In this document: positions 31,583 through 62,540 of the stretch, one piece after another
Numbering within the stretch: position 1 is the first letter of the stretch
Layout of the letters: each line of letters begins with the position of its first letter
From: an uncultured Methanosarcinales archaeon
GTDB taxonomy: Archaea; Nanobdellota; Nanobdellia; Woesearchaeales; JACJVW01
Direction: 5' to 3'
NCBI GenBank assembly: GCA_964473285.1
Contig: CAYYOI010000001.1
Coordinates: 1,689 to 65,688 of the forward strand
Length of the DNA stretch: 64,000 nucleotides
Position numbers and translations under genes: made by a program
Notes under the pieces: generated by a model
The model's database searches: none
The model's input: only the letters and a program-made list of their open reading frames with translations
Told to the model about the DNA's origin: nothing

Positions 31583-32098
31583 TTGAAATGTGGACACATC
31601 AAGGCTACAAGCCATATATGTATGTTTGGATATCAAAGAAATAAGATGGTATCCAAAATAAGAGATAAAGGGCAACTTGTCAGCATTTTTGATAAAGTTC
31701 AAAGGATCGAAAAGGATCTGAACCAGCTTTTGCCAGAAATGGATCGATCCAGGTTGATCAAAGCAATGTCTAAATGCAGACAGCATTACGAAGGTAAATT
31801 GTACTATGGCAGAAGAACATATGATCCTGAAGAGATCAAGAAAAGACCAAAATTAGAATTATCCGAGATTGAAAAGATCATCTATCATTATTTGATTGAG
31901 AACGACTTAAATCCTTCCACAACGTACAGATGGTTCTTAGCTACACGATTACCTTCAGATATCAAAGAACGTCTTTCTAATAGAGAAATACCTGTAAAGT
32001 TAGCCATGAGTATAGCTGCAAATAGAAGAAGGATCAGAGTTTCGAATCAAGGGCTTCTCATGATGGATGAGATGGTCAATATCATTGGAGGACTATAA
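31583..32098 (+). CDS. Hypothetical protein immediately upstream of, and overlapping, the integrase. The start is uncertain.
   Basis: ORF only. Basic, and its position is like an excisionase/regulator slot. Confidence 0.35.
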   Translation: MKCGHIKATSHICMFGYQRNKMVSKIRDKGQLVSIFDKVQRIEKDLNQLLPEMDRSRLIKAMSKCRQHYEGKLYYGRRTYDPEEIKKRPKLELSEIEKIIYHYLIENDLNPSTTYRWFLATRLPSDIKERLSNREIPVKLAMSIAANRRRIRVSNQGLLMMDEMVNIIGGL

Positions 32099-37681: not shown

Positions 37682-38950
37682 ATGATTACTCAAAAAAATA
37701 TGTATTCCGAAATTCCAATTTCCAAAGAAGAATTTGATCTTGTTGAAAAAACTTTAAGACAATTTGCAACAATCAGCGAATTTTACTTATCCAAATTTAC
37801 TAAACTCTACTCAAAGGAGCAACTTGCACGAAGCCATCCCTTAGTTGCTACAATATTAATAAGCGATGGACATAAAGAAGATGATCCTAACGAATTTTTA
37901 ATTTACCTGGAGGAACTTTTGAAGTTTCATAAACAAAGAAACACTCCTGGTTTGAAAAAAGTTATTGAAGAATCAAATAATAACAATGGCGGCACTCAGA
38001 ATTTTAATCATTCTCTTTCAGAACTTGAAATTTGCAAATTTATCATAGATAATGGTAATGAATGTAAATTCGATGATGATTTACTCATCAAACTTGATGG
38101 TGAAGAGTTTTGTGTGGAATTAAAAACTTACTCGGATTTTGCACAATTATCTCATGCCATGAATTCAGTCAGAGAGATTGAATCTAATTATTGGATTGAA
38201 ATAGAATTTTTGAATGGTTTGTTTAAAGATAAAATTGAAAAAATTGAATCTACTGTGAAAGAAATACTGCTTAATCCTTCTAAAAATGATTTATCTCAAC
38301 AAATAGAAATTAGACTTAATGATGAATCTCCAGTCTATGCGTGGGTTAGGTTTAATGAAAAAGACAAAACTCATAATTATAAGACAACTGGAGTTATTTC
38401 TTCAACTAAAGAAGCTATTGGTGTTGATCATGAGACTGCAAGAGAACAAATAATGAATTCTCTCGAAAAAGCAAGATATCAACTAACATCAAAATCTAAG
38501 TTCAATGGAAAGAAGAAATTGATTTTTATTGATTTAAAGAATTCTATTAATGATCTTTCTGTTTTTAAGAGAAAAAGAGATTTTATTCAAATTCTATATG
38601 GTAAAAGTTGTGTTATGGGAAAAACAAAATATCATAAGACTTTTGATGAATATAAAGAGTGGGCTTTGAAAGGATTTTTAGACAGTTCTATTGATCCAAC
38701 TGATAAAAAATATTTTGTTTCTGATTTTCCGAATACGTGTAAAAAATATTTCTTAGTATCTAACAAAGATCGAATAAAGACTGAAGCATTGACTTTTCTT
38801 TCAGAAAAAGGGTTATTCTTTAATGATGATTTCAACTTAATTAATGGTGTTGTTCTTTTTGAGAAAAAAGAGATTTCGTTATTTTTGAATCCTTTTGTAG
38901 ATGAGAGTTTACTTATCCCTGAGAGTAAATTCCCAATAAGATTATTCTAA
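37682..38950 (+). CDS. Hypothetical protein, very AT-rich coding sequence
   Basis: ORF only. Lys/Asn/Ile-rich. Confidence 0.4.
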   Translation: MITQKNMYSEIPISKEEFDLVEKTLRQFATISEFYLSKFTKLYSKEQLARSHPLVATILISDGHKEDDPNEFLIYLEELLKFHKQRNTPGLKKVIEESNNNNGGTQNFNHSLSELEICKFIIDNGNECKFDDDLLIKLDGEEFCVELKTYSDFAQLSHAMNSVREIESNYWIEIEFLNGLFKDKIEKIESTVKEILLNPSKNDLSQQIEIRLNDESPVYAWVRFNEKDKTHNYKTTGVISSTKEAIGVDHETAREQIMNSLEKARYQLTSKSKFNGKKKLIFIDLKNSINDLSVFKRKRDFIQILYGKSCVMGKTKYHKTFDEYKEWALKGFLDSSIDPTDKKYFVSDFPNTCKKYFLVSNKDRIKTEALTFLSEKGLFFNDDFNLINGVVLFEKKEISLFLNPFVDESLLIPESKFPIRLF

Positions 38951-39634
38951 ATAGTTTTGATTTTTCTTTACTATTCTTTGAACTGATATGTAGCTTATTT
39001 TGAATCCTTCTTTTTTGAGTATCTTCTCAGCTTCTCGATAACTTCCTCCTTTTTGATATGCTTTAAGCACATCAAACTTGTTGATTTTTGTTGTAATCTT
39101 TGGTCTTCCTCCTGAGTATATTCCTTTGTCTTTCTTGTTTCTGATTCCTGATTTGATGCTTTGTGATAGGTTTTTGCTGTAATTGTGGCTTTGCCAAACC
39201 ATGATTTGTCTTACTACGTTCCATTTGATGTCATCATCGCTGTCTATGTTGTCATTTAGGCTTATGAATCTGCATCCGTATTTATGCACTATTCGATCCA
39301 GTTCTTCGTTTGCTATGTGTGGTTGTTGTCTTGAGAATCTTGACAGATCATAAACGATCATTACTGTGTATTGTTTCTTTCTGATTTTCTCTAGGAGAGT
39401 TTCAAACTTAGGTCTTTTTATTTGTTTGAATCCTGAAAGGTATTCATAGACTATTTCAAAGTTCCAATTAGAGTTCTGGCAGTATGTCTTGCACTCTTTG
39501 ATTTGTTTATCGACATCCTGTCGGTCTTCATCTGTACTGCATCTTGCATAGATGATTGCTTTTGTCTTATTTTTTGTCTTATTCATTGTCTTATGGGGTG
39601 TCGGTAAAGGTGTCGAGATCCTTTTTTTCGGCAT
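38942..39634 (-). CDS. Small serine recombinase (resolvase/invertase family) with a C-terminal HTH
   Basis: 'AIIYARCSTDEDRQDVDKQ' is the YARxST...Q catalytic Ser motif. 'VMIVYDLSRFSRQ'. C-terminal 'GGSYREAEKILKKEGFKISYISVQRIV' HTH. Confidence 0.75.
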   Translation of the reverse strand: MPKKRISTPLPTPHKTMNKTKNKTKAIIYARCSTDEDRQDVDKQIKECKTYCQNSNWNFEIVYEYLSGFKQIKRPKFETLLEKIRKKQYTVMIVYDLSRFSRQQPHIANEELDRIVHKYGCRFISLNDNIDSDDDIKWNVVRQIMVWQSHNYSKNLSQSIKSGIRNKKDKGIYSGGRPKITTKINKFDVLKAYQKGGSYREAEKILKKEGFKISYISVQRIVKKNQNYLE

Positions 39635-41182: not shown

Positions 41183-44100
41183 TCATTTCAAAACCTTCCA
41201 TTTTCCATGCTTAGGCTCAAAGATTTTTCCAATTTTAGATAATCTTGAGATCTCTCTTTCTACCTCTTCTTCGTTCATCTGACTTTTTTCTACAATTACT
41301 TCAAAAGGAGTGCCATCTCCAGGATCGTTTTTATTAATTATATCTGAAAAATCAAAAACACATTCTTCCTCAATAATTGCAAAACCCCTATCATTTATAC
41401 ATCTTAAAATCAATGCTTTTGCTTCATTCACATCCAATAAACTAGGTTTCTCTGCCAATCTTAACTTAGCACTTGCTTCTGTAAGTCTTATTACAGAAAG
41501 AATAAATCGAGAGAAGCTTTGTATGTGATTATGTTCAATAAAACTTCTTTGATTTTTACAAAACTGTCTTATTGAATTTTCTACATCTTCAGGTGTGGGT
41601 TTAAGCTCGTGCTTATTCAAAACATAATAAATATACTTTCTAAGAAAATCTTTATTTCCAATATTTTCTCCTTTATAATTATCGAGTATTTTGGAAATTA
41701 TTTTATCATCTTGTGGTTTTTCAGCCTTAAGTATTAAATCAAATCTATCAAATATGTGTTTATTTATGCCTAATGACTTATGATCTACTCGATCTCTTTC
41801 TTCTTTTATGTTTCCAGCACACAAAATCTTTGCGGGTGCTTTCATTTGTTGCTGTATGTTTGCTTTGCTTATCGTAACTGTCTTCTTTTCAAGAGGTTCT
41901 CCTAATTTATCTATGTCATCCTCTTTTGCTTTGTCTACTTCATCTATGAAACACAATCCTTGACCTGCTAAGACTACTGCTCCTGCATCTAGTGCCCACC
42001 CACCTAGAAATTCATCTCTTACTACAGATGCAGTTATTCCTACTGCTGAACTTTTTGTGGATTCAACAAATACTGATTTTGGTGCAATATCGCATGCTTC
42101 TAGTGCTAAATGAGATTTGCCAAGTCCCCAACCTCCAAATATGTAAATATTTAATGATTTTCTAGTGTTAATATTTTTATTGATGTTTTCATTAGTTACC
42201 AACTGCAATAATAATGCTTTTTTAATGTGAATATTTCCCTCAACGTGTGGTGCAAATATATTTGATAAATTGGTCAATACATCATTATTTTTTGAAAATG
42301 AAAAAATATCTTCCGTATCCTTTATCGAGAGATTAATTCTTCTATCGTCTATGGGGTATATGTTGTTTATGTCTAGAATAATTTCACTTTTTGTCAGCCT
42401 TTGTCCTGTTCTTGAAAATATTGGATCTTCTTTTATTATACCTATTGATCTAACTCTATTTCCTGCTTGTAATATTATTTGATCATTACATAGATTTCCT
42501 CTAATTAAAGCATGTATTTTTTTTACTTCTATTAGATTAGTATTAGATGAGATGTCTTCAATAATTAATGACTGTACATCAATCATCTCTTTATTTATTA
42601 AATGAAATTTTCCTTTTCTTCCACAAGCACACATAGATGGTTCTTTGAATTTCTTATCTAATTGAAGTACATTTATTATGTTGCCACAACTAGGACATTC
42701 AAATTTGGCAGAGGTTGTTTGTGGTCTTACATCTGATTTTTGCCTGATTGTACCATCTATATAGCACAATTTTCCAATATGTTTAGTTCGGATGTTGCCG
42801 ATAAAGAGTTCAGAGGAATTAGGCAAATCACTAAATCTAAAAGGAATATCCTTTCTCTCTTTATCTATTAATTCTACAGACATTTGAAATATCTTTAACA
42901 TCTCTTCAGGATTATCTAATAAGGCATCTGCTAATTCAGGACTATATCTATAAAAATCCTTAAAATTAATTATAACAGAATCTTCTTTTTTTCCATTATA
43001 AAGAAGATTGTTTTCTTCCAAAAACTCTTTTATAAGATTAATTCTTTCTCCAATCTCATAATGTTTATATTTGGTTTTTTGTTCTTGTTCTTCTTTTTGT
43101 TTTAAATCAGAAATTATTATATTTACCTCTTTCTCCCCTTCATTTGTTAAACCCCAAATATCAACATTATTAACTCCTTGAGATTTAATTTCTATTAATT
43201 CTTCAGAAGAAAGACCTGTGGATCGACCATTTCTTTTCCTTTCTATAGCTCTTGAAATAGTATTAAGTGGAAGATTTAATTTTTTTGAAATATCAGATAT
43301 TGATAATTCTGATTCATATAAACATAATAATATTTTTTCTTTAGTGGGTAAGTTGGGTAAGTTGGGTAAGTTGGGTAAGTTGGGTAAGTTGGGTAAGTTG
43401 GTAAGTGGGTAAGTATGTTTTAATTTATGGGTAACTTGCATATTTCCTGTTCTATCCTCAGAATTAGCCCGATTTGAAACATCAGGATACCCAAGATACC
43501 CATTTTTTGATTTTAATACATACTTTTTTTCTTTGAATATTTTTTCAATTTCTATTTTTTCAATTTTGGTTTTTTCATGGATATTTTGGATATAACTTTG
43601 TGAAGTTAATTCATCAGCATAAACTAGTAAATCAAGAATTTCTTTTATCTTAGAAGTTTTTTCAATTGGATCTGATGGAATTCTCTCGATTAATAAGTCA
43701 ATCAAATGTTTAGAATTAGTTAATAATTGATTCACTAATTCTTTTGCCTCATCAACACTTTTTTTTGCCACATATTCATTAATATCTATTTTGTCTTTAT
43801 TTTCTTCTTTTGGAAGTTCACATAAACGAATATTAGTCACTTTGTTTGTGAATAAGAATTTTGCAGTTTCTAAAGCACCTTCTTCTCCTGCTTTGTTGTC
43901 TTCGTTGTCGTTGATGATATAGACTTTTTTTAGGTTTTTAACTAGTTGTAATAGTTTTGCATGATCTTTTTTTCTAAATTGAACAGTGACTGGACTTATT
44001 GAGCTGAATCCTGATTGTATTAGGCTAATGCAGTCCGTAACTCCTTCTGTAATAATAGTATAATCTTTATTTAAGGTGTCTTCTCCATAGAAGTATTTGT

Positions 44101-44881
44101 TTTCAACAACTTTACTTATGTAAGGTCTTTTTTCATTTGGGCTGAATTGTTTTTTATACTTACTTTCTTCATATTTGTTATTTGGTGTGTTTTCTGTTTT
44201 TCTTGCAATAAACCTAACTACTTTGTTGTGTTTTAGGTAAGGATATATGATTCTACCTTTAAAAATAGGAATTATTGTATCTTGATATGCTGTAAAAAGT
44301 CCTGTTTTTAGTATATCTTCTCTTTGGTACTTGTTCAACAAATATGGGATTATTCTATTTTCCGTATCTGCATAGCCTATTAGAAGTCTATCAACTGTTT
44401 CATCAGTAAACCCTCTGATTCCTTTTTCAAACTCACGAATTGTATTACTTTTTATTTTATATTCATCAATATGTTTATGATAGAACTCTGCTATGTCTTT
44501 TTGAATATTAAAAACAAGCATTTCTTCTTCTTTTTCTTTTTTTAGTTCAGCAATCTTTTCCTTGCTTAGTTTTTTGAGTGGAACACCTGTCTTTTCAGAT
44601 AATATGTTTAAAGCTGTTGGGAAATCACAATTCTCACTAATCATGACAAGGTCAAAAATATCTCCTCCTTTACTTGCAGGACATCCTGCACTAAAACAAA
44701 TAAAGCCTTGATTGTCATAAGAAATGAAGCTATTTTTGTTCTTACTATTGTGAAACTTACACTCTCCTTGATATCGATCACCTAAGTGTTTCAGATGTAT
44801 TCCATAATCTGAAGCAAGATCTGAAATCTTTATCTTACTCTTGATTTCATTCTTTATCACTTCAAAATCAAAAGATTCCAT
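41183..44881 (-). CDS. Replication protein: a DnaG-type primase (zf-CHC2 + TOPRIM) fused through an (LPN)n linker and an HTH to an MCM-family AAA+ helicase
   Basis: zf-CHC2 'CKFHNSKNKNSFISYDNQGFICFSAGCPASKGGDIFDLV'. TOPRIM 'YTIITEGVTDCISL' and 'YIINDNEDNKAGEEG'. MCM zinc finger 'CPSCGN...CACGRKGKF'. Walker A 'IFGGWGLGKSH'. Walker B 'CFIDEVDKA'. MCM arginine-finger 'IFDRFDLIL'. Confidence 0.75.
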   Translation of the reverse strand: MESFDFEVIKNEIKSKIKISDLASDYGIHLKHLGDRYQGECKFHNSKNKNSFISYDNQGFICFSAGCPASKGGDIFDLVMISENCDFPTALNILSEKTGVPLKKLSKEKIAELKKEKEEEMLVFNIQKDIAEFYHKHIDEYKIKSNTIREFEKGIRGFTDETVDRLLIGYADTENRIIPYLLNKYQREDILKTGLFTAYQDTIIPIFKGRIIYPYLKHNKVVRFIARKTENTPNNKYEESKYKKQFSPNEKRPYISKVVENKYFYGEDTLNKDYTIITEGVTDCISLIQSGFSSISPVTVQFRKKDHAKLLQLVKNLKKVYIINDNEDNKAGEEGALETAKFLFTNKVTNIRLCELPKEENKDKIDINEYVAKKSVDEAKELVNQLLTNSKHLIDLLIERIPSDPIEKTSKIKEILDLLVYADELTSQSYIQNIHEKTKIEKIEIEKIFKEKKYVLKSKNGYLGYPDVSNRANSEDRTGNMQVTHKLKHTYPLTNLPNLPNLPNLPNLPNLPTKEKILLCLYESELSISDISKKLNLPLNTISRAIERKRNGRSTGLSSEELIEIKSQGVNNVDIWGLTNEGEKEVNIIISDLKQKEEQEQKTKYKHYEIGERINLIKEFLEENNLLYNGKKEDSVIINFKDFYRYSPELADALLDNPEEMLKIFQMSVELIDKERKDIPFRFSDLPNSSELFIGNIRTKHIGKLCYIDGTIRQKSDVRPQTTSAKFECPSCGNIINVLQLDKKFKEPSMCACGRKGKFHLINKEMIDVQSLIIEDISSNTNLIEVKKIHALIRGNLCNDQIILQAGNRVRSIGIIKEDPIFSRTGQRLTKSEIILDINNIYPIDDRRINLSIKDTEDIFSFSKNNDVLTNLSNIFAPHVEGNIHIKKALLLQLVTNENINKNINTRKSLNIYIFGGWGLGKSHLALEACDIAPKSVFVESTKSSAVGITASVVRDEFLGGWALDAGAVVLAGQGLCFIDEVDKAKEDDIDKLGEPLEKKTVTISKANIQQQMKAPAKILCAGNIKEERDRVDHKSLGINKHIFDRFDLILKAEKPQDDKIISKILDNYKGENIGNKDFLRKYIYYVLNKHELKPTPEDVENSIRQFCKNQRSFIEHNHIQSFSRFILSVIRLTEASAKLRLAEKPSLLDVNEAKALILRCINDRGFAIIEEECVFDFSDIINKNDPGDGTPFEVIVEKSQMNEEEVEREISRLSKIGKIFEPKHGKWKVLK
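43346..43414 (-). repeat. In-frame 9-nt tandem repeat encoding (LPN)n in the linker of the primase-MCM protein
   Basis: Plus strand 'gggtaagtt' x6 followed by degenerate units. Protein 'LTNLPNLPNLPNLPNLPNLPT'. Confidence 0.85.
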
Positions 44882-50448: not shown

Positions 50449-51549
50449 ATGTTCGTAAAGATAACAGAAAAAAAAGATTCATCATATATCCTGTTCGATG
50501 GATACAGAACAAGAAAAGCATCATGTGATGCTGATCTTTCCAAGGGAGAGATTGTATTCTTGGAAGGAAAGAAAGCAATAGACCTTGATTCAGCTATAAA
50601 GGCACGGATAATGGATATACCGGGGATGCATGAGGTATGCAAGACTCTCATAAAAGCTATGCTTGAAGGTAAACAGATCTTTCTTAGGCATCATGCAGAT
50701 GCTGATGGGATCTGCGGGGCATTATCTTTAGAAAGGGTTCTTCCGGTCAAGATGAGACTACAGTCAAGAAGACCTGCTTATGACGATTCAGTATTAAGAG
50801 AGATGGGCATGATGCAGAATGGGCTTGTTGTCCTTATTGATCATGGATCAACTCCTGACAGCCTATTTGCCCTTCAGGTGCTTGAAGAGGCAGGCATAGA
50901 TTACTGTATCATAGACCATCATAGGCCTGTTGCAAGGGAACTTTCACAACAGGTGAATTCCGAGGAGTACACTGCAGGCATGCTGGCTTTTGAGATTGCA
51001 CAGGTAATAAACCCAACAGAGGATTATACGCTGCCTGCGATATCAGGTATAGGAGATAAGTCTCCTGTGAGAATCTATGCTGATAAATGCGGCAAAAATG
51101 ATGAAGAGCTCAAGCAATATGCACTTGCCCTTGATTTCATGGCGTTCATGGGGGGAAAAAGCTACCTGCAGATAATACGAAACAAAGGGCTTGCAAGAAC
51201 AATGGCCCTTGAAGCTGAAGACAGGATAAATGTATTCCTTGCCTCCGCAGAGATAAAAGAGGAAAAGATAGGAGATGTCACAGCCGTAAAGGTAGATCTT
51301 CAAGGTCTTGAGAGGAGGTTCCCTAATGCAGGCAAGATAGTTGGTCATCTTCTTACACGTTATGAGGAAGCTTTTGTCATGGGGGTGCTTGAGGACCATA
51401 TAATAATAAGGTCAAATGCAGGACCAGATATACAGGCGATAGTCGAAAAACTTGAGTTAAATGGGGGAGGCCACGCAAGGGCAGGAACAATACATTTTGA
51501 ATCAGGCAGGAGTGAATTGATTATAAAAAGAATAAAGGGATTATTCTAG
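50449..51549 (+). CDS. DHH/DHHA1 phosphoesterase (NrnA/RecJ-like)
   Basis: 'HHADADGICGA', 'IDHHRP' (DHH) and 'NGGGHARAG' (the DHHA1 GGGH motif). Confidence 0.8.
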   Translation: MFVKITEKKDSSYILFDGYRTRKASCDADLSKGEIVFLEGKKAIDLDSAIKARIMDIPGMHEVCKTLIKAMLEGKQIFLRHHADADGICGALSLERVLPVKMRLQSRRPAYDDSVLREMGMMQNGLVVLIDHGSTPDSLFALQVLEEAGIDYCIIDHHRPVARELSQQVNSEEYTAGMLAFEIAQVINPTEDYTLPAISGIGDKSPVRIYADKCGKNDEELKQYALALDFMAFMGGKSYLQIIRNKGLARTMALEAEDRINVFLASAEIKEEKIGDVTAVKVDLQGLERRFPNAGKIVGHLLTRYEEAFVMGVLEDHIIIRSNAGPDIQAIVEKLELNGGGHARAGTIHFESGRSELIIKRIKGLF

Positions 51550-54141
51550 GTAAGGCCTGAGCTTTTGGCGGTATAACAAGGGATAATTTTTCAAGACTCT
51601 TGATACTGCTTCTTTTAGCAGATGTTTTGGATAATGGCGCATAGATAGTATTTTCATTACAACCTCTGGTTTGCGAAGGTCAAACTGCGATATTATTGCC
51701 ACCAACTGGCTTATGTAAAATTCGTCAACTTTTCTTTGGGCTTCTTCAAAGGATTTCTCAACAATCTTTTCTTTCCAACCGCTTTGCAGCATCTGGGACT
51801 TTATCCGGGAGGGGTCATATCCTTGCATCAGGTTCTGCTGGATATACCCTACCAACCGGAGATTTGCCTGAGGAGGGCTTACTAAGCCTATCTTCTCCAG
51901 ATATGGTTCTATGTAAGGCTCATCGCGCATATAATATAGCGCACCTCCACCAACAAGCAATACCACGATTATTATTCCAATAATCAAGAATGAGCCTAAG
52001 TTGCCTGGCTCTTCTATTTCTGGTTCTGTTTCACAAGGGTCACAGGGACCCCCGCAATCAACATCTTCTTCGCCCTGGTTCTGGACATCATCATAACAGG
52101 AGGGTTCTTCTTCGCAAGGGTCACAGGGACCCCCGCAATCAACACCTTCTTCGCCCTGGTTCTGGACATCATCATGACAGGAGGGTTCTTCTTCGCAAGG
52201 GTCACAAGGGCCACCGCAATCAACATCTTCCTCGTCTGAATCCTGGATACCATTATCACAGGAATCACATGACCTTTCCTCATCCGGTCTGGCATTGTTA
52301 CACCCATTAAGATCTGTGCATTCCCTATACTGTGTGCTTGCTTCACATTCTGACCATTCAGTGCAATTCCAGTCCGGTTCGCAGGTGCATTGACCGCAGT
52401 CATCAGGGCAAGTGCTGCAATTCTCGATGGAATCACAGGTCCCATCCCCACAGAAGAAATTATATTCAACTTCTATCTCCCCTGAATAATTATAAGGCTC
52501 GAGATCCAGTGTAGTGTTACAGGTGATGTTATAGGAAAAATTTCCGGTCTCATTGAATGTGTGTGAGTGATAGAATGTATCATCAGTCTCCATCCTGAAT
52601 GTCTTATTGCCAAGAGTGAAATGGCATGAGCCGTTGTAATCGGAAAATAGCTTATCATAATAGCGATAATCTGCAAAAAATAAGATCGGTTCTTGTGCAT
52701 ATGCACTATCGTTTACTGTTATGTTAAAAGAAGTCTTTTCAACAAGCTCATATTCTGTCAGGTACTTTGCCCTGAACCTGAAATCCTCACCTTCTTCCTC
52801 TATAAGAACCTGGTTCATACATTCACCTATACATGGCTCATCTTCTCTTAGAAGACCAGGATCATCAAAATCATTGCTATAGAATGTTATCTCAGGCCAT
52901 GGTTCAAGATCATGAAGCCTTTCGATTGTTACATCAAGATAATGCTTTTCAAGTGTTATTCCTTCATCAAGATTCAAACCTGTGAAATTGATGCATATAT
53001 TGGTAAGGTTTATCATGCCTATACCTGTTATCTCAAGAAGGGCATCGCATTCATTGGAAGCATCCCAATAAGTCAGGTTTGTTGTAGAACCATTGAATTT
53101 ATTGTAGATAGGATCATTATCTTTTTCTTTACTTGATGTCTGAATATCAAAATAAACCTCAGGTGAATTCATTACGACATCAAAGCAATATACAGGGATA
53201 TTATAATCGCTTTGAGGTGATAATCCTGTTATTGTTACCAGGTGGGTCTTTCCCATTTTAAGGATGTCAGTGAAATTTGATCCAGAAACAAATTTATAAT
53301 GCTCATAAGCATCCTGAAAATCCATATCCGGTACATCTTCCTGACTATAGCCTGGCCTTATCTCATATATATTCTGCTTAAGACGTCCATAGCAAGGCTC
53401 ATCTGTCCTGAAACGGAGTGTCACATTGGTTGGGTTAGTCTCATAGGTTTCAAGGTTTGTTATCTCTGGTTCTTTCTTATCGATTATGCTAATATTTACA
53501 TCCTTCTTTATCTCTTCGTATTGATTTGAAGCAGTTATTGTTGTAACGAAATGACTTATAGTCTTTGTATAATCATCGGGAGGTGTCCATGTCCCAGGTC
53601 TCTGAAAAGGACTGTCAAAAGAAAGGGTGGCATTACCTGAAAAATTATATGAAAGCACCAATTCCTCTCCTTCATATCCATACACATGTTTCCTTACTGA
53701 AAGATTTATGGGATAAGGAGACTCAACAGTAACATCCATGTAGGTTTGGTTGGAAAGGCCCTGCGGGTCTGTAACAGTAAAGACTATTGTCTCTGTTCCA
53801 ACCCATTCGGGTGCTGTGATTGTTGCATTGTTCCCATTCATCTCCAGTTCAAGGTTCTGAGTTTCTGCATCCCACATGAGGTCTGAATCAGGGGATTGGG
53901 AATCATAGACATAATCATCCAGATCAATTGTTACTGACTCTCCAAAAGAGAGGGTTGCTCCGGTTATGTTGATGACCTTAGGTGCCGTATTATTAGTGGA
54001 GTTTTGGACTGCAAAACCAGTAGGATGGGTTACAGATTGTAATGAAAGAACGAATATGAAGAGTCCTGCAAGTATTATAACTACTGAGAACAGGGTGAAT
54101 GGGTCCCTTTTCTGTTCCACAAGTTCTTCTAGGCTAGCCAT
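51541..54141 (-). CDS. Bitopic/ditopic membrane protein with a large extracytoplasmic region ending in tandem Cys-rich 27-aa repeats, a second TM and a ~150-aa cytoplasmic C-terminal domain
   Basis: N-terminal TM 'LFSVVIILAGLFIFVLSL'. Repeats 'CGGPCDPCEEEPSC(H/Y)DDVQNQGEE(G/D)VD'. TM 'FLIIGIIIVVLLVGGGALYY'. Confidence 0.65.
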   Translation of the reverse strand: MASLEELVEQKRDPFTLFSVVIILAGLFIFVLSLQSVTHPTGFAVQNSTNNTAPKVINITGATLSFGESVTIDLDDYVYDSQSPDSDLMWDAETQNLELEMNGNNATITAPEWVGTETIVFTVTDPQGLSNQTYMDVTVESPYPINLSVRKHVYGYEGEELVLSYNFSGNATLSFDSPFQRPGTWTPPDDYTKTISHFVTTITASNQYEEIKKDVNISIIDKKEPEITNLETYETNPTNVTLRFRTDEPCYGRLKQNIYEIRPGYSQEDVPDMDFQDAYEHYKFVSGSNFTDILKMGKTHLVTITGLSPQSDYNIPVYCFDVVMNSPEVYFDIQTSSKEKDNDPIYNKFNGSTTNLTYWDASNECDALLEITGIGMINLTNICINFTGLNLDEGITLEKHYLDVTIERLHDLEPWPEITFYSNDFDDPGLLREDEPCIGECMNQVLIEEEGEDFRFRAKYLTEYELVEKTSFNITVNDSAYAQEPILFFADYRYYDKLFSDYNGSCHFTLGNKTFRMETDDTFYHSHTFNETGNFSYNITCNTTLDLEPYNYSGEIEVEYNFFCGDGTCDSIENCSTCPDDCGQCTCEPDWNCTEWSECEASTQYRECTDLNGCNNARPDEERSCDSCDNGIQDSDEEDVDCGGPCDPCEEEPSCHDDVQNQGEEGVDCGGPCDPCEEEPSCYDDVQNQGEEDVDCGGPCDPCETEPEIEEPGNLGSFLIIGIIIVVLLVGGGALYYMRDEPYIEPYLEKIGLVSPPQANLRLVGYIQQNLMQGYDPSRIKSQMLQSGWKEKIVEKSFEEAQRKVDEFYISQLVAIISQFDLRKPEVVMKILSMRHYPKHLLKEAVSRVLKNYPLLYRQKLRPYLE
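52034..52250 (-). repeat. Near-identical 81-nt tandem repeat (about 2.5 units) encoding the Cys-rich 27-aa module
   Basis: Units start at about 52034, 52115 and 52196, with only a few mismatches between the first two. Confidence 0.85.
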
Positions 54142-57321: not shown

Positions 57322-59157
57322 GTGTCGATTCATAAGATTTATAAAAAATATGGGTTTCCGGATAGTGGAGGGGTATTAATGAGTAAAAAGAAATCAAATG
57401 TTAAACTTAAAAGGAAAAAAAACGACAACAATATCTGGATTTTTACAAGCGCAATATTAGGAGTGCTGCTTCTAGCATCAATATTTACTTCCGGTTTTGG
57501 AACTTGCCCAACCGCAGGAGTTATCGCTGAAGTGGACCATATGGTGGGACAGGCAAATGATACCACACTTACTCAATCATGGCAGACGGTTAAAGAGGGT
57601 GTAATGACTATGGAAAAGGAACCAGTTGAGAGTTCCGGAGAACAAGTATCCTTACAGATGTATGTGATGAGCCAGTGTCCTTATGGAACACAGGTTGTTG
57701 ATGCAATCGCACCTGTAAAAGAAAAACTTGGAGATTCACTTGATCTTTCTATCGATTACATAACATATCCTACTGAGATGTATCCTGAAAAGGAAGACGA
57801 GTTCTGTGTCAGCGGAATGTGCTCAATGCACGGAACAAGTGAGGTCAAAGGAAATATTGTACAACTATGTGCAATGGAACATAATCCTGAGAAATACCTT
57901 GATATGCTTACATGCATGAACGAGAACATGAATGCTATACCTGACAACTGGGAAGCCTGTGCTGAAGGGCTTAATGTTGAAGAGATCAGGTCATGCTATG
58001 AAGGGGATGAAGGAAAAATGCTCCTGAATAACAGTGCTGCAAAAGCGCTTAACGCTGAGGCGAGCGGAAGCCCTACAATATTTCTGGAAGGCGAAAAATA
58101 CAGTGGCGAACGATCAGAGATGGATTTCATGAGATCAGTCTGCAACTCTTTTGAAGAAAGGCCTGCTGCATGCGCTGATGTTCCGGAACCTACAAAGGTG
58201 CCTATGACAATTGTAAATGCAGAGGACTGTGAGAACTGTGATTCTTCACAACTTATTGGTGTGATAAAGGGATTGTTCCCTGGTGTTGAGGTCAATGAGG
58301 TTGAAGCAACCTCTGATGAAGGGAAGGCACTCATCGAACAATACAATATTGAGGTTGCGCCATCATTCCTTTTTGAAACATCCCTGGATGAGACTGAAGC
58401 ATGGGGACAGAGGCAAGACCTGGCTCGCGCTTTTGAAAAGATTGATGACAAGTACAAGCTAAGGGATGACCAGACAGGAGCCACCTATTTCATTGATGAA
58501 GAAAAGCGAAAAGAACAAGAAGAGATGATGGAGAACTATCCACAACAGAATCTTGAAGTGCTTGGATATGATTCAGAGAAACCAAGGCTTGACTATTTTG
58601 TGATGGCTTTTTGTCCATATGGGAATCCTGCGGACGAGGCAGCAGCAGAACTACATGATGCTTTTGGTGACAAGGTAGAGATTGTACCACACTATATCCT
58701 TGGTGTTTCAGGAGATTCAATAGAGTCACTGCATGGAGAGCAGGAAGGAGACCAAGGAATACGTGAACTATGCGTACTTGAGGAATTTGGAGAAGAAGAG
58801 TATTATGAATTTACTCTTGCAGCAAATGAGCAGTGTACATCGCAGAATGCTAACTCATGCTGGGAGGATGTAGCTGCATCTGTCGGGCTTGATACAGAGC
58901 CAATCAAGAACTGCATGGAGGATAAGCTGACCTTGGCACAAGAACAAGCAGATCTCAATAGCCAGATAGTTACCCTACAGCAGGGTCAACTGGTACCTCC
59001 TTCAGCATCCCCTACATTCCTTGTCAATGGTGCTGCATACAGCGGCGGCAGGGATGCTGAGAGTCTCAAGGCAGCATTGTGTGCTGAATTTGAGAATGCT
59101 CCTGCAGTTTGTGATGAAACATTATCACAGGATACTGAAGCAGCAGGCACCTGTTAA
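57322..59157 (+). CDS. Membrane-anchored extracytoplasmic Cys-rich protein with two tandem GILT-like (gamma-interferon-inducible thiol reductase-like) domains. The start is possibly at 57379.
   Basis: Repeat 1 has 'YVMSQCPYG...YITYPTE...EFCVSGMCSMHGTSEVKGNIVQLCA'. Repeat 2 has 'YFVMAFCPYG...EIVPHYI...SLHGEQEGDQGIRELC'. These resemble the GILT 'YYEALCxxC...LVPYGNA...CQHGxxEC' layout. Confidence 0.5.
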   Translation: MSIHKIYKKYGFPDSGGVLMSKKKSNVKLKRKKNDNNIWIFTSAILGVLLLASIFTSGFGTCPTAGVIAEVDHMVGQANDTTLTQSWQTVKEGVMTMEKEPVESSGEQVSLQMYVMSQCPYGTQVVDAIAPVKEKLGDSLDLSIDYITYPTEMYPEKEDEFCVSGMCSMHGTSEVKGNIVQLCAMEHNPEKYLDMLTCMNENMNAIPDNWEACAEGLNVEEIRSCYEGDEGKMLLNNSAAKALNAEASGSPTIFLEGEKYSGERSEMDFMRSVCNSFEERPAACADVPEPTKVPMTIVNAEDCENCDSSQLIGVIKGLFPGVEVNEVEATSDEGKALIEQYNIEVAPSFLFETSLDETEAWGQRQDLARAFEKIDDKYKLRDDQTGATYFIDEEKRKEQEEMMENYPQQNLEVLGYDSEKPRLDYFVMAFCPYGNPADEAAAELHDAFGDKVEIVPHYILGVSGDSIESLHGEQEGDQGIRELCVLEEFGEEEYYEFTLAANEQCTSQNANSCWEDVAASVGLDTEPIKNCMEDKLTLAQEQADLNSQIVTLQQGQLVPPSASPTFLVNGAAYSGGRDAESLKAALCAEFENAPAVCDETLSQDTEAAGTC

Positions 59158-59172
59158 TTTTTTATTTTTTAT

Positions 59173-59823
59173 TTGGAGGTTCTAATGATCAAAAGATTCA
59201 TGGGAAAACTTGTGGGAAAAACTTTATTCTATCCAGGCTGTATTACAAGTACTGAAATTAAAGAGAACTATCTGAAGATACTTGAATACCTGGGTTATGA
59301 TGTGGTTGAGATAACTGAACTTAACTGCTGTGGAGGGCCTGTTATTTCTGCAGGATATGACTCTGATTTCTATGATCTTGCACAGAAAAATAAAGAAAAG
59401 TTGCAGGGTATCAAGAGGATAATAACTAACTGTCCGGAATGTGCTTTCATGTTCAATACATATTACAAGATACCTACAGAACATATCTCTGATATACTCT
59501 ATAAACACAAGGACAGGTTTGATAAGACTCATGAAGAGCCCATCTCTTATCATAGGCCTTGTCACCTGAGAAAAGCGGGGATTGATGCGCCAGAGAAACT
59601 GCTTTCCCATATAGGCTATGAGGTTGTCCCATTACCTGACCAATGTTGCGGGGCAGGAGGAGGGCTGAAAAGAAACAAGCCGGAGATTGCAAACAAGGCA
59701 GCCAAGGCCAGGCTATCCCAATGCAGGACAAACAAGATCATAACCTCATGCCCATTATGCTATCAACACCTTAAGGAGAATGCAAGCATCAAGGTCATGG
59801 AACTCTCGGAGGTCCTGAAATGA
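59173..59823 (+). CDS. Two-CCG-domain (Cys-rich) protein, HdrB/GlcF-C-terminal/GlpC-like
   Basis: 'PGCITS...ELNCCGGP...NCPECAF' and 'RPCHL...DQCCGAGGG...SCPLCYQHL'. Confidence 0.7.
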   Translation: MEVLMIKRFMGKLVGKTLFYPGCITSTEIKENYLKILEYLGYDVVEITELNCCGGPVISAGYDSDFYDLAQKNKEKLQGIKRIITNCPECAFMFNTYYKIPTEHISDILYKHKDRFDKTHEEPISYHRPCHLRKAGIDAPEKLLSHIGYEVVPLPDQCCGAGGGLKRNKPEIANKAAKARLSQCRTNKIITSCPLCYQHLKENASIKVMELSEVLK

Positions 59824-60965
59824 GGAAACTGATTGAACTATTCAAGGAGGATATCTCTTTTGATACTGACGAATTCATGGCTTATTCTACTGATGCATCA
59901 CAGATAAAAGGAGAGCCTATAGCAATAGTGTGGCCAAGAAATGTAGAACAGATCCAAAAGCTTGTACAGATTGCATTAAGGAACAAGCATACACTGGTTC
60001 CAAGAGGTGCAGGGACAGGCCTTGCAGGAGGATGTGTTCCACAGAAAGCTATCGTTGTTGATATGTCAAAGATGAACAAGATCGAGTCAATCAATGTGAG
60101 GGATAACAAAGTTACTGTGCAACCAGGAGTGGTCATATCTGATCTCAACGAGAAGCTTGACAGTTATGACTTGTTCTTTCCTGTGATACCTGCAAGCCAT
60201 ACTGCATGCCAGATAGGAGGTATAATCTCAACCAACGCTGTAGGGACAAGGGCGTTAAGGTTTGGCAGGACCTGTGACTGGGTTCATGAAGTAAGGATTG
60301 TTGACGGGGGAGGTAAGCTTCTGAAGGTCAGGCCTTCTGACATATGCGGAACAGAGGGGATCCTGGGGATAATAGTTGAGGCAACACTTAAGGTAACCGA
60401 GCCTTTACCACAAACAACCCTTACAATAAGAAAATACGACCATGTGGATGAGATTGATTTCGGTGAGTTCTCTGATGCGATTGCACTTGAGTTCATAGAT
60501 AAGCTCTCTGCTGAAATGCTTGACCTTGAGCCTGCATATTACCTCTTTTCAGAATATGAAGAGAAGGGTGAAATAACAGATCCGGAAAGAATAAAGGAAT
60601 TATGGGGACTAAGGAAGAGACTTGGACCCCTGCTCACAACAAAGCGTTACAAGATCAAGGAAGATCCTAAGATTCCTTTAGAAAACATGGGAAAATTCAT
60701 CAGGTGGGTAACAAACAATAAGATTCCGGCTTTCGGACATATAGGGGTGGGAATACTACACCTTAGATTCAGGAAAGAGCAGGAAAAACTGATCAGACAG
60801 ATGTTTGAAAAGGTTATAGAACTTGGTGGTTCAGCAAGTGGAGAGCATGGAATCGGACTTGCAAAAAAACAGTATGTTGATCAGAAACGTATACGGGAGC
60901 TTACTGCATTGAAGGAGAGATTTGATCCTGAAAAGGTATTCAATAGAGGTAAGATATATGACTGA
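59820..60965 (+). CDS. FAD-linked oxidase (GlcD/D-lactate dehydrogenase-like), PCMH-type FAD-binding domain
   Basis: 'PRGAGTGLAGG' and 'GHIGVGILH' in the C-terminal domain. The stop and start overlap the flanking genes. Confidence 0.8.
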   Translation: MRKLIELFKEDISFDTDEFMAYSTDASQIKGEPIAIVWPRNVEQIQKLVQIALRNKHTLVPRGAGTGLAGGCVPQKAIVVDMSKMNKIESINVRDNKVTVQPGVVISDLNEKLDSYDLFFPVIPASHTACQIGGIISTNAVGTRALRFGRTCDWVHEVRIVDGGGKLLKVRPSDICGTEGILGIIVEATLKVTEPLPQTTLTIRKYDHVDEIDFGEFSDAIALEFIDKLSAEMLDLEPAYYLFSEYEEKGEITDPERIKELWGLRKRLGPLLTTKRYKIKEDPKIPLENMGKFIRWVTNNKIPAFGHIGVGILHLRFRKEQEKLIRQMFEKVIELGGSASGEHGIGLAKKQYVDQKRIRELTALKERFDPEKVFNRGKIYD

Positions 60966-61263
60966 TGCCCATAAATGTGTAATGTGCGGGATGTGCAAGG
61001 CTAGATGCCCTGTTTTCCGGGCGACGCATAATGAATTATATTCTCCAAGGGGAAAGGCTATGCTTCTTAAGGAAGAGAAGGAATCTGCAACGTTCTACAT
61101 GTGTACCTTATGTGGAGCATGCACAGAGATCTGCGCGTCTGATGTTGATTTTGAGGTGCAAAAAGTGCGCAGGGAACTTGTCAGAAAAGGGATAGAGACT
61201 GAAGCAAACAAGAAGATGATCGAGAACGTGAGAAAGTATGGGAACCCTTTTGGAAAAGAATAA
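60922..61263 (+). CDS. 2x[4Fe-4S] ferredoxin-like protein, GlcF N-terminal-like
   Basis: 'CVMCGMCKARCPV' and 'CTLCGACTEICAS'. Confidence 0.75.
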   Translation: MILKRYSIEVRYMTDAHKCVMCGMCKARCPVFRATHNELYSPRGKAMLLKEEKESATFYMCTLCGACTEICASDVDFEVQKVRRELVRKGIETEANKKMIENVRKYGNPFGKE

Positions 61264-61792
61264 AGATGTGTTAGCATTAGTTATTGCCGGAGTCCTGGTC
61301 ATTGGGATAATCACACTTTCAATCGTTATTTCTGTCGACTCGCCAGTAATCGAAGAGGCGCTTGCAAGGGTGCAGACAAACCACTCTGATGTGGTGGTCA
61401 CTGCTTTTATAGATTATGATTGTCCTGCCTGCGCAGAGACTTTTGATCTTTTACGCCAACTTGCATATGATTATCCGGAAATAGTGGTAGAGATCAAACA
61501 ATTCCCGATATCATCAGGGGGCTTTGAAAAGGCAGTCGTTGCTGAATGCGCAAGGGATGAGGGAAGATTCACAAAGGTGTCAGAAAAGCTTTTTGATGGA
61601 GAAGAGATTGATATAAATACTAGTGATTGCGGGGAAGAAAGAGTCAAAAGACACATGATTGAGGGGGATGAAAGGCTTGTGAGCGGGACACCTACCCTTT
61701 TTATAAATGGTGTTGAGATGCAGGGTTTAAAGGATTATTCGATAATCAAGCAGGAGGTTAAACATGCTATCAGAGATTCAGGCAACAATTGA
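61238..61792 (+). CDS. Membrane-anchored thioredoxin-fold DsbA-like thiol-disulfide oxidoreductase
   Basis: N-terminal TM, then 'FIDYDCPACAETF' with a CxxC motif. Confidence 0.55.
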   Translation: MGTLLEKNKDVLALVIAGVLVIGIITLSIVISVDSPVIEEALARVQTNHSDVVVTAFIDYDCPACAETFDLLRQLAYDYPEIVVEIKQFPISSGGFEKAVVAECARDEGRFTKVSEKLFDGEEIDINTSDCGEERVKRHMIEGDERLVSGTPTLFINGVEMQGLKDYSIIKQEVKHAIRDSGNN

Positions 61793-62540
61793 TACATTAA
61801 AAAAACAAGGCATCAGATTAAGCGCACCGGTACTTGTTGACCTGGTAGGCCTTATCATATTCATATTCGTGAATTCAATCTATATAAAAAAGATAGTTGC
61901 TGCTCTGACCTCATTCAATGTGCATGTCTCAAGGAACATGGAAGCGATCATGGGAGATTTGCTCACAACAAAGGATATATTCAGCATCATGTCAAAATAT
62001 CCTTTGATTGCCAATGATCTTTCAACTGTATTTTTCCTCACATTTCTCATGTTTGTGAGTTGCTTTATCATCTACTGTGTTTTCCAAAGCGTGAGCTGGT
62101 TTTTTGCTTATCGGTTTACAGGGCATAAAGTGTCTTTGTCCCGGTTCATGCTAAGGTTTAGTGTTGTAAACATTCCATGGGTCTTATTGCTTTTATTGGG
62201 AAGCTTTATTTCTCTTATATTTGATATACGGGCAGCACTTTCAACAAGCCCGGTATCATTCAATAATATCTTTACTAGCATTCTAATGTTCTTTTTAGTC
62301 TACATAGCTCTTGTCTCATACACCCGGCTCGATAAAAAGAATCCGTTTAAGGCACTGAAAAGCATTGCAAGAAAGAGATTATTCCTGGGTTACGTTGGCG
62401 GTTTTGCATTATTCTTTGGAACAGTATTCTTGTTCAGCCTGGTACCGATCCATGCTATCCAGCTTATACTGGAAGTATTATTCTTACTTCCCCTTCTTAC
62501 CGGACTTCGTGTCTTTTTCCTTAAACTTTCCAAGAACTGA
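61764..62540 (+). CDS. Hypothetical polytopic membrane protein
   Basis: Six TM helices. No family recognised. Confidence 0.4.
   Translation: MLSEIQATIDTLKKQGIRLSAPVLVDLVGLIIFIFVNSIYIKKIVAALTSFNVHVSRNMEAIMGDLLTTKDIFSIMSKYPLIANDLSTVFFLTFLMFVSCFIIYCVFQSVSWFFAYRFTGHKVSLSRFMLRFSVVNIPWVLLLLLGSFISLIFDIRAALSTSPVSFNNIFTSILMFFLVYIALVSYTRLDKKNPFKALKSIARKRLFLGYVGGFALFFGTVFLFSLVPIHAIQLILEVLFLLPLLTGLRVFFLKLSKN

Follow-up and report, generated by a model that had tools for sequence, protein, structure and literature searches.

The window analysed here, a 64-kb stretch of DNA in which tRNA and Rfam features were searched for and none found, carries on its + strand an open reading frame at positions 57322-59157; all features of this gene described below are on the + strand. 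Counted from the GTG at 57322, which is the start of the longest frame, the ORF list gives a protein of 611 amino acids. An initial annotation of this DNA had described a tandem GILT-like ORF with two CPYG motifs, an observation that we confirmed. The likeliest coding sequence is shorter (57379..59157, 592 amino acids plus stop): homologues and the NCBI gene model (P0001, 592 amino acids) begin at M20, encoded by the ATG at 57379, and a GGAGGGG Shine-Dalgarno-like motif is located about 8 nt 5' of this codon. Residues are named here in the 611-residue numbering, except for helix positions in the AF2 model, which are given in the 592-residue numbering. The family is without its own model in NCBIfam, where the top matches reach 21-22 bits against cut-offs of 185-190.

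The N-terminal end of the protein is basic and cytoplasmic (MSKKKSNVKLKRKKNDNN) and leads into the one transmembrane anchor (IWIFTSAILGVLLLASIFTSGF, aa 38-59), the two together being encoded by 57379..57498. The stretch preceding the hydrophobic segment is very basic, and the AF2 model shows a helix at residues 18-36, which corresponds to the anchor region. This arrangement is shared by the relatives, 115 of 117 of which possess an N-terminal hydrophobic 19-mer with on average 12.6 K/R residues before it and 1.3 after it. On the basis of the positive-inside rule, the topology is N-in/C-out and the tandem GILT-like part is extracytoplasmic, so that the earlier description of an archaeal membrane-anchored protein holds and its modules face outward. 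A helical stalk or linker of low confidence (aa 60-104, 57499..57633; pLDDT 58-79), poorly conserved, follows the anchor.

Beyond the stalk, the AF2 model (pLDDT 91.3) displays the layout of PDI/DsbC-type proteins, with three confidently modelled thioredoxin-fold modules and nucleophilic cysteines at positions 119 and 431. Both cysteines are found between beta1 and alpha1, and in all three modules a conserved proline directly precedes beta3. GILT-like domain 1 (D1, aa 105-290, 57634..58191) has the three-dimensional fold of GILT, and its thioredoxin fold with an inserted helical domain is also that of the DsbA type. The second GILT-like domain, called here D3 (aa 419-599, 58576..59118), is assigned from hhalign and Pfam as a diverged paralogue of D1 and is separated from the central domain by a charged helical linker (aa 390-418, 58489..58575; helix 374-394 in the model).

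The initial annotation had proposed that the two halves form a tandem repeat, and they are indeed real paralogues: D1 and D3 of the query align by BLASTP with E=1e-17 and 30% identity, and the corresponding family profiles align by hhalign over 167 columns with a probability of 100% and E=7e-59, far beyond chance. The relation of each half to GILT was assessed with the PF03227 profile. D1 matches it at aa 111-215, over positions 2-105 of the 107 in the profile, with 53.1 bits (E=4.5e-14) where the gathering score is 22.4. By contrast, the D3 of the query gives no GILT match and is detected instead by the PF25011 VSR_TRX profile (38.2 bits for a gathering score of 27), over profile positions 83-208 only, which form its C-terminal part. 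The match expected for both halves is thus obtained for D1 and missed for the D3 of the query, though three of ten D3 sequences from relatives pass the PF03227 gathering score and three more reach 19-22 bits; in a high-GC clade of the family, both halves match GILT. It had been stated that the GILT assignment would fall if no GILT profile matched or if the repeats belonged to another thioredoxin-fold family. Neither was found, given the 53.1 bits of D1 and the GILT-like nature of VSR_TRX itself (PMC11052993). An origin of D3 from another thioredoxin-fold family is ruled out because the D1 and D3 profiles align, D3 of relatives matches GILT and VSR_TRX is GILT-like (PMC11052993).

Each GILT-like domain bears a CPYG active site. 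In D1 it covers aa 119-122 (57676..57687), C119 being at the nucleophilic position and G122 standing where the resolving Cys would be. In an alignment of 121 sequences, these columns contain C in 120, P in 120, Y in 109 or F in 9, and G in 119. The D3 site (aa 431-434, 58612..58623; C431, G434) is as constant, with C and P in all 121 sequences, Y in 112 or F in 8, and G in 120. The single-Cys nature of the two sites, previously read from this one sequence, is therefore a conserved trait of the family. In a wider set of about 260 sequences, the most distant at roughly 30% identity, CP[YF][GA] is retained in both modules, CP[YF]G is near-invariant, the fourth residue is G or A in most members and true CxxC is rare. 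A Ser-Pro-Thr loop with a presumed cis-Pro accompanies each site: the D1 loop (58069..58077), immediately before beta3 and presumably facing the active site, is conserved at S250 (119/121), P251 (120/121) and T252 (119/121), and the D3 loop (59008..59016), before a strand in the model, at S563 and P564 (119/121 each).

The GILT signature is degenerate in both domains. That of D1 (CSMHGTSEVKGNIVQLC, aa 167-183, 57820..57870) keeps H170, G171 and E174 (119/121 each) and C183 (120/121), and that of D3 (ESLHGEQEGDQGIRELC, aa 468-484, 58723..58773) keeps H471, G472, E475 and C484 (120/121 each). What remains in the family is H-G-x2-E-x3-N/G-x4-C and not the full CQHGX2ECX2NX4C, which is carried by a Blastocystis GILT found among the matches of the same query. 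In the profile alignment of D1 with mouse GILT ('CQHGELECRLNMVEAC'), the first signature Cys corresponds to Ser168 and the second, that of the 'EC' element, to Val175; the latter position is Gly476 in D3. The replacement of the signature Cys by Ser, initially attributed to the second copy only, is correct for Ser469 but also applies to the first copy. Indeed, C167 of the query is an adjacent cysteine rather than the signature one, and is found in only 24 of 121 sequences. The retention of CP[YF][GA] together with H-G-x2-E indicates strong purifying selection on both CPYG modules.

Each GILT-like domain contains seven conserved cysteines, and not the 10-11 of GILT; the shortfall of three corresponds to the resolving Cys and both signature Cys. 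The six non-catalytic cysteines align with cysteines of mouse GILT. Moreover, the 179/194 pair is jointly lost in five sequences and the 486/494 pair in nine, which suggests that each of these pairs may form a structural disulfide. Since the six match mouse GILT cysteines and one pair is lost in concert, the CPYG cysteine would be the sole unpaired cysteine of each module. The number of conserved cysteines in the three-domain form is odd (17), and the candidate redox cysteines therefore cannot all pair within the molecule; single-domain relatives have an even number (8). These data bear on the idea that the protein might act on low-molecular-weight thiols, either as a monothiol glutaredoxin or by a GST-kappa/HCCA-isomerase mechanism, with small molecules or S-thiolated proteins as substrates. 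We consider this very unlikely: low-molecular-weight thiol pools are not expected at an extracytoplasmic location, the apparent three structural disulfides per module are typical of exported proteins, and GST kappa scores far below GILT and DsbA.

The central thioredoxin/glutaredoxin-like domain (aa 291-389, 58192..58488) is modelled as beta-alpha-beta-alpha-beta-beta with a pLDDT of 93-98. Its family profile matches the N-unit of the Pyrococcus protein disulfide oxidoreductase PDO (1j08/1a8l) with E=1e-7, and weaker matches were obtained with thioredoxin h and TIGR02187. A CENC Cys pair (aa 303-306, 58228..58239) is found at the canonical CxxC position of thioredoxins, aligned with WCGPC of thioredoxin h and CQYC of PDO, and both cysteines are present in all 121 sequences. 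The domain also has an Ala-Pro-Ser loop (58357..58365) whose presumed cis-Pro, P347, is invariant (121/121) and which aligns with the cis-Pro loop (MPT/APA) that thioredoxin h and PDO possess. It should be noted that the residues between the two cysteines are highly variable and that their spacing is CxxC in 102 sequences, CxxxC in 10 and CxxxxC in 9; judged from this variability, a structural disulfide would be no less fitting than a tuned redox centre.

The protein ends with a flexible tail (TLSQDTEAAGTC, 59119..59154; pLDDT 42-74) whose last residue is Cys611 (codon 59152-59154), conserved in 119 of 121 sequences. In the family, the tails extend 15-22 residues past the last structural Cys, are rich in Ala, Pro, Ser and Thr, and end in GxC or GCG. 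A Cys lies within the last six residues in 207 of 221 (94%) CxxG/A relatives versus 4 of 7 CxxC proteins (three, according to another tally), an association (odds ratio about 11, p=0.01) that relies on seven CxxC sequences only and is uncorrected for phylogeny. This gives a hint that the tail Cys may substitute for the resolving Cys. Neither the central thioredoxin-like domain nor the conserved Cys611 had been mentioned in the initial annotation.

GILT was described in 2008 as a protein with no known prokaryotic homologues (PMC2398784), and the statement that the GILT family is mainly eukaryotic, which had been repeated for this locus, is now out of date: at least 587 DPANN genomes, counted at the species level, contain members, and the family comprises 2005 clusters at 50% identity. 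The same succession of anchor, GILT-like, Trx-like and GILT-like modules and tail is also present in the high-GC clade, which is probably bacterial, judging from its lipoprotein signals, its GC content of 63-71% and its GerE, DUF4215 and FabH-like neighbours. In single-domain variants, a lone CPYG domain stands between the anchor and the tail Cys. Tandem monothiol GILT-like proteins thus constitute a large and coherent prokaryotic family. Literature searches on prokaryotic GILT, PF03227 and Woesearchaeota disulfide or DsbA proteins returned nothing on it, and a search for 'CPYG' returned SmGrx3 alone.

Downstream of the gene, in the same orientation and with junctions that are short or overlap, lie genes for a CCG/FAD/Fe-S oxidoreductase and a gene (61238-61792) for an anchored DsbA-like protein whose active site is a canonical CPAC. 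This organization, the preservation of gene order in relatives at 83% and 72% identity and the known occurrence of CCG domains in heterodisulfide reductases are in line with the earlier proposal of a thiol-redox system encoded in a single operon. To examine this proposal, 80 genome loci were searched by phmmer with the neighbours of the window, all ORFs around the gene in these loci were clustered in an unbiased way, and six loci were inspected individually. Within 6 kb of a family member, each of the CCG, FAD and Fe-S genes is found in 1 of 80 loci and the DsbA-like gene in about 5 of 80, synteny is limited to relatives of at least 72% identity, and no neighbour family is present in more than 13 of the 80 loci. 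The CCG/FAD/DsbA-like cluster was absent from the five distant loci inspected singly. Furthermore, the products of the CCG/FAD/Fe-S trio have no export signals and best match GlcD/GlcF-type subunits of lactate or glycolate dehydrogenase, and the trio looks like a cytoplasmic GlcD/GlcF-type dehydrogenase. The operon proposal was accordingly rejected on the 80 loci and the six single loci, co-occurrence largely refuting it, and we regard it as scarcely tenable. The 80 loci revealed no conserved partner gene nearby, and no electron donor or acceptor was identified.

The same neighbourhood data, together with profile scores, bear on whether the protein could be the primary extracytoplasmic disulfide oxidase, that is, a functional DsbA operating without a quinone-dependent DsbB/VKOR, its disulfide being held by the central CxxC or formed between the CPYG Cys and the tail Cys. 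The Gram-positive DsbA family (S. aureus DsbA 3BCI, B. subtilis BdbD, MdbA) consists of single-domain proteins with a dithiol CxxC, unlike the query, in which the active sites read CPYG although the cis-Pro-type Ser-Pro-Thr loops are conserved; the DsbA-family profiles Thioredoxin_4 (PF13462; 22.0 vs 23.2) and DSBA (PF01323; 15.9 vs 25.6) both score below their cut-offs. In addition, the window encodes the separate CPAC-bearing DsbA-like protein, no reoxidising partner recurs beside the gene in the 80 loci, and a disulfide involving a tethered tail would be an unprecedented oxidant. An oxidase is therefore improbable in our opinion.

Comparison with characterized systems indicates what sets the family apart. 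Mammalian GILT (IFI30; mouse structure 6NWX) has a dithiol CxxC, the CQHGX2ECX2NX4C signature and 10-11 conserved cysteines (PMC7017176), whereas the present family has Gly or Ala in place of the resolving Cys, no signature Cys and seven cysteines per domain. At the start of alpha1, where GILT proteins carry CXXC or CXXS (PMC7017176, PMC6060088), the first Cys of the query is canonical and the fourth residue is Gly in both domains. GILT is moreover a soluble, single-domain lysosomal enzyme of eukaryotes, unlike the anchored three-module prokaryotic protein with its Cys-tipped tail; as the latter is prokaryotic and N-terminally anchored, endolysosomal location is not applicable as a GILT hallmark. 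The TRX domain of plant vacuolar sorting receptor 1 (PF25011; 8R4Y/9B1R), whose profile cut-off is exceeded by D3, is the second or third best structural match. This domain is reported to be closest to GILT, then to S. aureus DsbA, and to have helical-bundle helices braced by disulfides (PMC11052993). It differs in that its active site reads CxxxC, that it contains an insertion of 40 residues and that it belongs to a eukaryotic cargo receptor with PA and EGF domains, and neither PA nor EGF domains of that PA-TRX-EGF architecture (PMC11052993) are present in the query.

PDI/DsbC-type isomerases resemble the query in possessing several thioredoxin-fold modules and two separated active sites, and Foldseek with the whole chain gave weak matches to PDI, ERdj5 and QSOX; however, the catalytic modules of the query are monothiol and of the GILT/DsbA type, and its CxxC-bearing module is the central one. 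Pyrococcus PDO (1A8L/1J08; TIGR02187) offers another point of comparison, as its N-unit aligns with the central domain (E=1e-7), the Cys pair falling on CQYC-D, and the CPYC of its C-unit weakly aligns with the D3 CPYG in the same chain order. Nevertheless, PDO is cytoplasmic and made of two plain Trx units, both dithiol; only the central domain is PDO N-unit-like, and the TIGR02187 equivalog scores 21.2 bits for a cut-off of 185. An identical CPYG on a thioredoxin fold is found in SmGrx3 of Sinorhizobium meliloti, a MauE fusion whose glutaredoxin domain exchanges thiols weakly (PMC6315971), but this is a plain glutaredoxin fold of another family and architecture, and the motif looks convergent. 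Lastly, mosGILT and insect CxxS GILT-like proteins are likewise natural monothiol variants of the GILT fold (PMC6060088). They are eukaryotic, secreted, single-domain proteins that carry Ser at the fourth position rather than Gly or Ala, and mosGILT has a hydrophobic C-terminal extension where the present family has a Cys-tipped tail.

In PDI, isomerisation strictly needs only the first Cys of the CxxC, the second one providing an escape route. From the architecture described above we propose, with moderate confidence, that the protein is a membrane-tethered, outward-facing, PDI-like catalyst of thiol-disulfide exchange in which the tail Cys and/or the central CxxC would resolve the monothiol sites in trans. 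It would present its modules in the PDI-like order GILT-like, Trx-like and GILT-like, each GILT-like module offering a nucleophilic Cys at the N-terminus of alpha1 and a facing Ser-cisPro-Thr loop, with the resolving Cys lost. C119 and C431 may attack disulfides of secreted or surface proteins to yield mixed disulfides, a monothiol site being probably sufficient for disulfide shuffling, and the activity would run in the isomerase/reductase rather than the oxidase direction. The last Cys of the tail and/or the central Cys pair, which could serve as a relay, would then act in trans to resolve stalled mixed disulfides and recycle the sites.

Data on other monothiol proteins point both ways. The CxxS mutant of mouse GILT is still active, though less so (PMC6060088), and a low deglutathionylation activity is reported for the CPYG glutaredoxin SmGrx3 (PMC6315971). 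Reductase activity is undetectable in the CxxS protein mosGILT (PMC6060088), hence a GILT-like domain with one active-site thiol can lack catalysis. The modules could then constitute a redox-inactive binding or chaperone device that holds unfolded or Cys-containing surface proteins with no turnover, the single Cys perhaps ensuring covalent retention as in ERp44. We judge this reading unlikely. Despite its lack of reductase activity, mosGILT does have a biological role through binding (PMC6060088), the related TRX domain of the plant receptor belongs to a cargo receptor (PMC11052993), and the resolving Cys and both signature Cys are lost family-wide. On the other hand, the nucleophilic Cys, the Pro next to it, the cis-Pro loops and H-G-x2-E are 98-100% conserved across very distant lineages, which would be unusual for a pure scaffold, and the conserved tail Cys and central Cys pair are further features of the redox type.

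A broader version of the proposed exchange catalyst, which we consider rather doubtful, would view the proteins as a 'split CxxC' family common to DPANN archaea and the bacterial-looking high-GC clade. The resolving Cys would have been relocated to the tip of a C-terminal arm and the Trx module would act as an internal relay, giving a self-contained extracytoplasmic disulfide isomerase to organisms devoid of quinones and DsbB/VKOR. In this view, eukaryotic GILT and the plant VSR TRX domain would both derive from the prokaryotic family. In any case the design is fixed and unusual, with two monothiol GILT-type sites, a central thioredoxin module with a Cys pair and a Cys-tipped tail. If active, it would represent a new way to resolve mixed disulfides and would help to trace how GILT and the TRX domain of plant vacuolar sorting receptors arose. 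It would then also be a candidate for the apparatus with which DPANN archaea, presumed episymbionts, fold their numerous Cys-rich surface proteins. Such Cys-rich surface proteins, typical of these organisms, would be the likely clients of the proposed catalyst. Two Cys-rich ORFs located near the gene, encoding an anchored protein of 866 amino acids with 32 Cys and a 4353-residue protein with 30 Cys, are possible examples.

The tandem GILT-like open reading frame (57322-59157, + strand) encodes 611 residues when counted from a GTG codon. Its homologues align from M20, the record of a Candidatus Woesearchaeota MAG contains a 592-aa protein that starts at M20 and is identical to the query, and a GGAGGGG sequence lies about 8 nt upstream of the ATG at 57379. 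For these reasons 57379 was taken as the start, although the 611-aa residue numbering of the initial annotation was kept. All sequence strings quoted in that annotation were found in the query and its two halves are indeed paralogues: BLASTP aligned them with 30% identity (E=1e-17), and the family-level profiles of domain 1 (aa 105-290) and of the second GILT-like domain (aa 419-599) matched over 167 columns with 100% probability and E=7e-59. The expected match to the Pfam GILT profile (PF03227) was recovered on aa 111-215 (53.1 bits compared to a gathering score of 22.4) whereas the second half of the protein gave no GILT match; it matched PF25011 (VSR_TRX) with 38.2 bits for a cut-off of 27.

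The AlphaFold2 model, built with an alignment of 117 sequences, had a mean pLDDT of 91.3 and a pTM of 0.76, with three folded modules each above 93 and low confidence in the stalk and the last 15 or so residues. Comparison with the PDB using Foldseek ranked mouse GILT (6nwx; E 7e-7, TM 0.76 on the target) first, followed by plant VSR1 and then by numerous DsbA-family proteins. In the model, C119 and C431 are located between strand β1 and helix α1, and model and alignment both place conserved prolines immediately before β3, a predicted arrangement that matches the canonical active-site geometry of thioredoxin folds. Homology and fold place the GILT-like domains in the GILT/VSR_TRX branch of the DsbA-like superfamily.

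The single-Cys active sites reported initially (CPYG at 119-122 and 431-434) are a family trait. The 120 best homologues (35-100% identity, nearly all full-length) have CP[YF]G at both GILT-like active sites, and each of the two sites departs from it once, with CxxC. When domain 1 alone was used for an exhaustive HMMER search, 2005 clusters (50% identity) reached E<=1e-3 and 170 of them E<=1e-30; the majority of the clusters contain two matched stretches and are 500-700 aa long. Motif counts in 140 new representatives (CPYG 109, CPFG 24, CPYA 20, CPFA 17, CPYC 8, CPYS 3 and CPGC 3) indicate that replacement of the resolving Cys by a small residue is the rule. The H-G-x2-E part of the GILT signature is conserved in 119-120 of 121 sequences in both domains; both signature cysteines are replaced in both copies, by Ser and Val/Gly at the aligned positions. 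C167, previously assigned as a signature Cys, turned out to lie beside the signature position, and only 24 of the 121 sequences have a Cys there. Seven Cys are conserved in each GILT-like domain and, in domain 1, six of the seven match the non-catalytic Cys of mouse GILT one-to-one. Residues 179/194 are lost together in 5 sequences and 486/494 in 9 (592-aa numbering), as would be expected of disulfide pairs. GILT is described with 10-11 conserved Cys (PMC7017176), and the query domains lack three of the GILT Cys, namely the resolving one and both of those in the signature. From this alignment-based bookkeeping, the CPYG Cys would be the sole Cys lacking an in-domain partner in each GILT-like domain.

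Two further elements had been overlooked. The first is another module of thioredoxin fold (aa ~291-389), located between the GILT-like domains. Its CENC pair (C303/C306) aligned to the WCGPC of thioredoxin h and, with the family profile, to CQYC-D in the N-terminal unit of the Pyrococcus protein disulfide oxidoreductase (E=1e-7). Both Cys and the cis-Pro-type proline are invariant in 121 sequences. The spacing of the pair varies (CxxC in 102 sequences, CxxxC in 10 and CxxxxC in 9) and its inner residues are highly variable, a pattern no less compatible with a structural disulfide than with a redox centre. The second is a C-terminal tail of 15-22 residues, rich in Ala, Pro, Ser and Thr and ending in GxC or GCG, whose Cys (C611) column is conserved in 119/121 sequences. 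This tail accompanies the last GILT-like domain, including in single-domain proteins, where the Cys count is then even. The tail Cys is found in 207 of 221 CxxG/A proteins compared to 4 of 7 CxxC proteins, one of these four being really a structural Cys (Fisher p=0.01, with kinship among sequences ignored).

In agreement with the membrane anchor initially described, an N-terminal hydrophobic segment is present in 115 of 117 relatives, preceded on average by 12.6 Lys/Arg and followed by 1.3, which points to an N-in/C-out anchor. The exported, tethered protein has three thioredoxin-fold modules, each with a conserved cis-Pro-type loop; its two canonical nucleophilic Cys lack resolving partners, its central Cys pair is invariant, and its disordered tail bears a conserved Cys. 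We infer that C119 and C431 would attack disulfides of client proteins and that an escape or recycling step would come from the tail Cys, the central Cys pair or both. The occurrence of the tail after the last GILT-like domain and its association with CxxG/A rather than CxxC sites lend indirect support to such a role of the tail Cys; the odd total of conserved Cys in the three-domain form (17) is a weak point of the mechanism. A monothiol site suffices for disulfide shuffling, as established for PDI CxxS variants, and MsrA and Erv2, as analogies only, carry resolving or shuttle Cys on flexible C-terminal segments. Regarding activity, monothiol precedents cut both ways: a mouse GILT CxxS mutant retains reduced activity, mosGILT (CxxS) has none (PMC6060088) and SmGrx3, a CPYG glutaredoxin, is weakly active (PMC6315971). 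Plausible clients are Cys-rich surface proteins; two ORFs of the window would be examples, one for an anchored protein of 866 aa (32 Cys) and one of 4353 aa (30 Cys). The former (51541-54141, - strand; 3.7% Cys) has N- and C-terminal hydrophobic segments and three tandem '...QNQGEE.VDCGGPCDPCE.EP' repeats, with no Pfam match; the latter (11111-24172, - strand), with an N-terminal hydrophobic segment, has features typical of DPANN giant surface proteins.

In a scan of one genome per species, at least 587 genomes encode the family. By record title, nearly all of them are DPANN (Woesearchaeota, Nanoarchaeota, Nanobdellota, Altiarchaeota, Nanohalarchaeota), some TPA records being titled 'uncultured Methanosarcinales', a label used as in the record. 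A second clade, on contigs of 63-71% GC with GerE-type, DUF4215 and FabH-like neighbouring genes, has bacterial lipoprotein signals and the layout of the query (CPYG, CxxC-D, CPYG, tail GxC); it is probably bacterial. Loci L087 and L088 encode its three-domain proteins P0220 and P0288, and in L088 a 1-Cys peroxiredoxin and a separate DsbA-like protein are encoded no more than about 1 kb from the three-domain gene. Single-domain forms (8 Cys in total) consist of an anchor or lipobox, one CPYG domain and the tail with GxC; one such gene is complete and lies on a Woesearchaeota contig of 383 kb. Domain 1 also retrieved, with E=4e-42, a protein from Blastocystis in which the canonical GILT repeat (CPGC and CQHGEKECYGNMVEDC) occurs four times, which ties the prokaryotic family to classical GILT. 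This eukaryotic protein (P0200, Blastocystis sp., KAK8799652.1) has a signal peptide, and its four tandem domains carry CPGC/CPSC and the full CQHGEKECYGNM signature; tandem GILT repetition therefore occurs in a protist too.

Published GILT motifs comprise CXXC, the full signature and 10-11 Cys, whereas the query domains display none of the three. The protein was therefore not filed as 'a GILT' but assigned to a distinct prokaryotic subfamily of GILT-like proteins, which has an architecture of its own. According to a 2008 survey, GILT had no known homologue among prokaryotes (PMC2398784), and we found no later published description of one in the literature. Databases label the family in generic terms that do not agree with each other (hypothetical, DsbA family, thioredoxin domain, GILT family, glutaredoxin, HCCA isomerase), and no NCBIfam model covers it. 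Thioredoxin-fold oxidoreductases and their monothiol variants are already familiar and the mechanism is one that we infer; this large conserved family of unusual redox design bears on the handling of extracellular disulfides in DPANN and on the origin of GILT.

Downstream of the gene (59173-62540, + strand) lie genes for a CCG protein, a GlcD-like FAD protein, a 2x[4Fe-4S] protein, an anchored DsbA-like protein (CPAC) and a polytopic membrane ORF. The first three appear to form a split GlcD/GlcF-type dehydrogenase. The DsbA-like ORF overlaps the Fe-S ORF by 26 nt and is itself overlapped by the membrane ORF (258 aa), which has two Cys in a hydrophobic segment ('SCFIIYC') and no Pfam match. This order is retained in close relatives only (L004 and L007, 83% and 72% identity) and is not kept in five more distant loci. 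Among 80 genome loci, each of the three genes (CCG, FAD, Fe-S) lies within 6 kb of the homologue in a single one, the DsbA-like gene is near it in about 5 (by phmmer with a single sequence as query, which overlooked at least one divergent case), and no recurrent neighbour family is found in more than 13. The thiol-redox system initially suggested with these DsbA-like and CCG/FAD neighbours is not borne out, and the tandem GILT-like gene is effectively stand-alone.

The window has a GC content of about 40% and contains no tRNA or Rfam matches. Between 30000 and 46000, GC falls to 28-37% compared to ~40-44% elsewhere. This region, probably a mobile element or provirus integrated in this Woesearchaeota genome, encodes a tyrosine integrase (32067-33137, + strand), a serine resolvase (38942-39634, - strand) and a 1232-aa primase-MCM fusion (41183-44881, - strand) that joins a DnaG-type primase (CHC2 zinc ribbon, DNAG_N, Toprim) to an MCM helicase. 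It also includes a secreted or anchored 1325-aa protein with PQQ/BamB-type β-propeller repeats (33471-37448, - strand).
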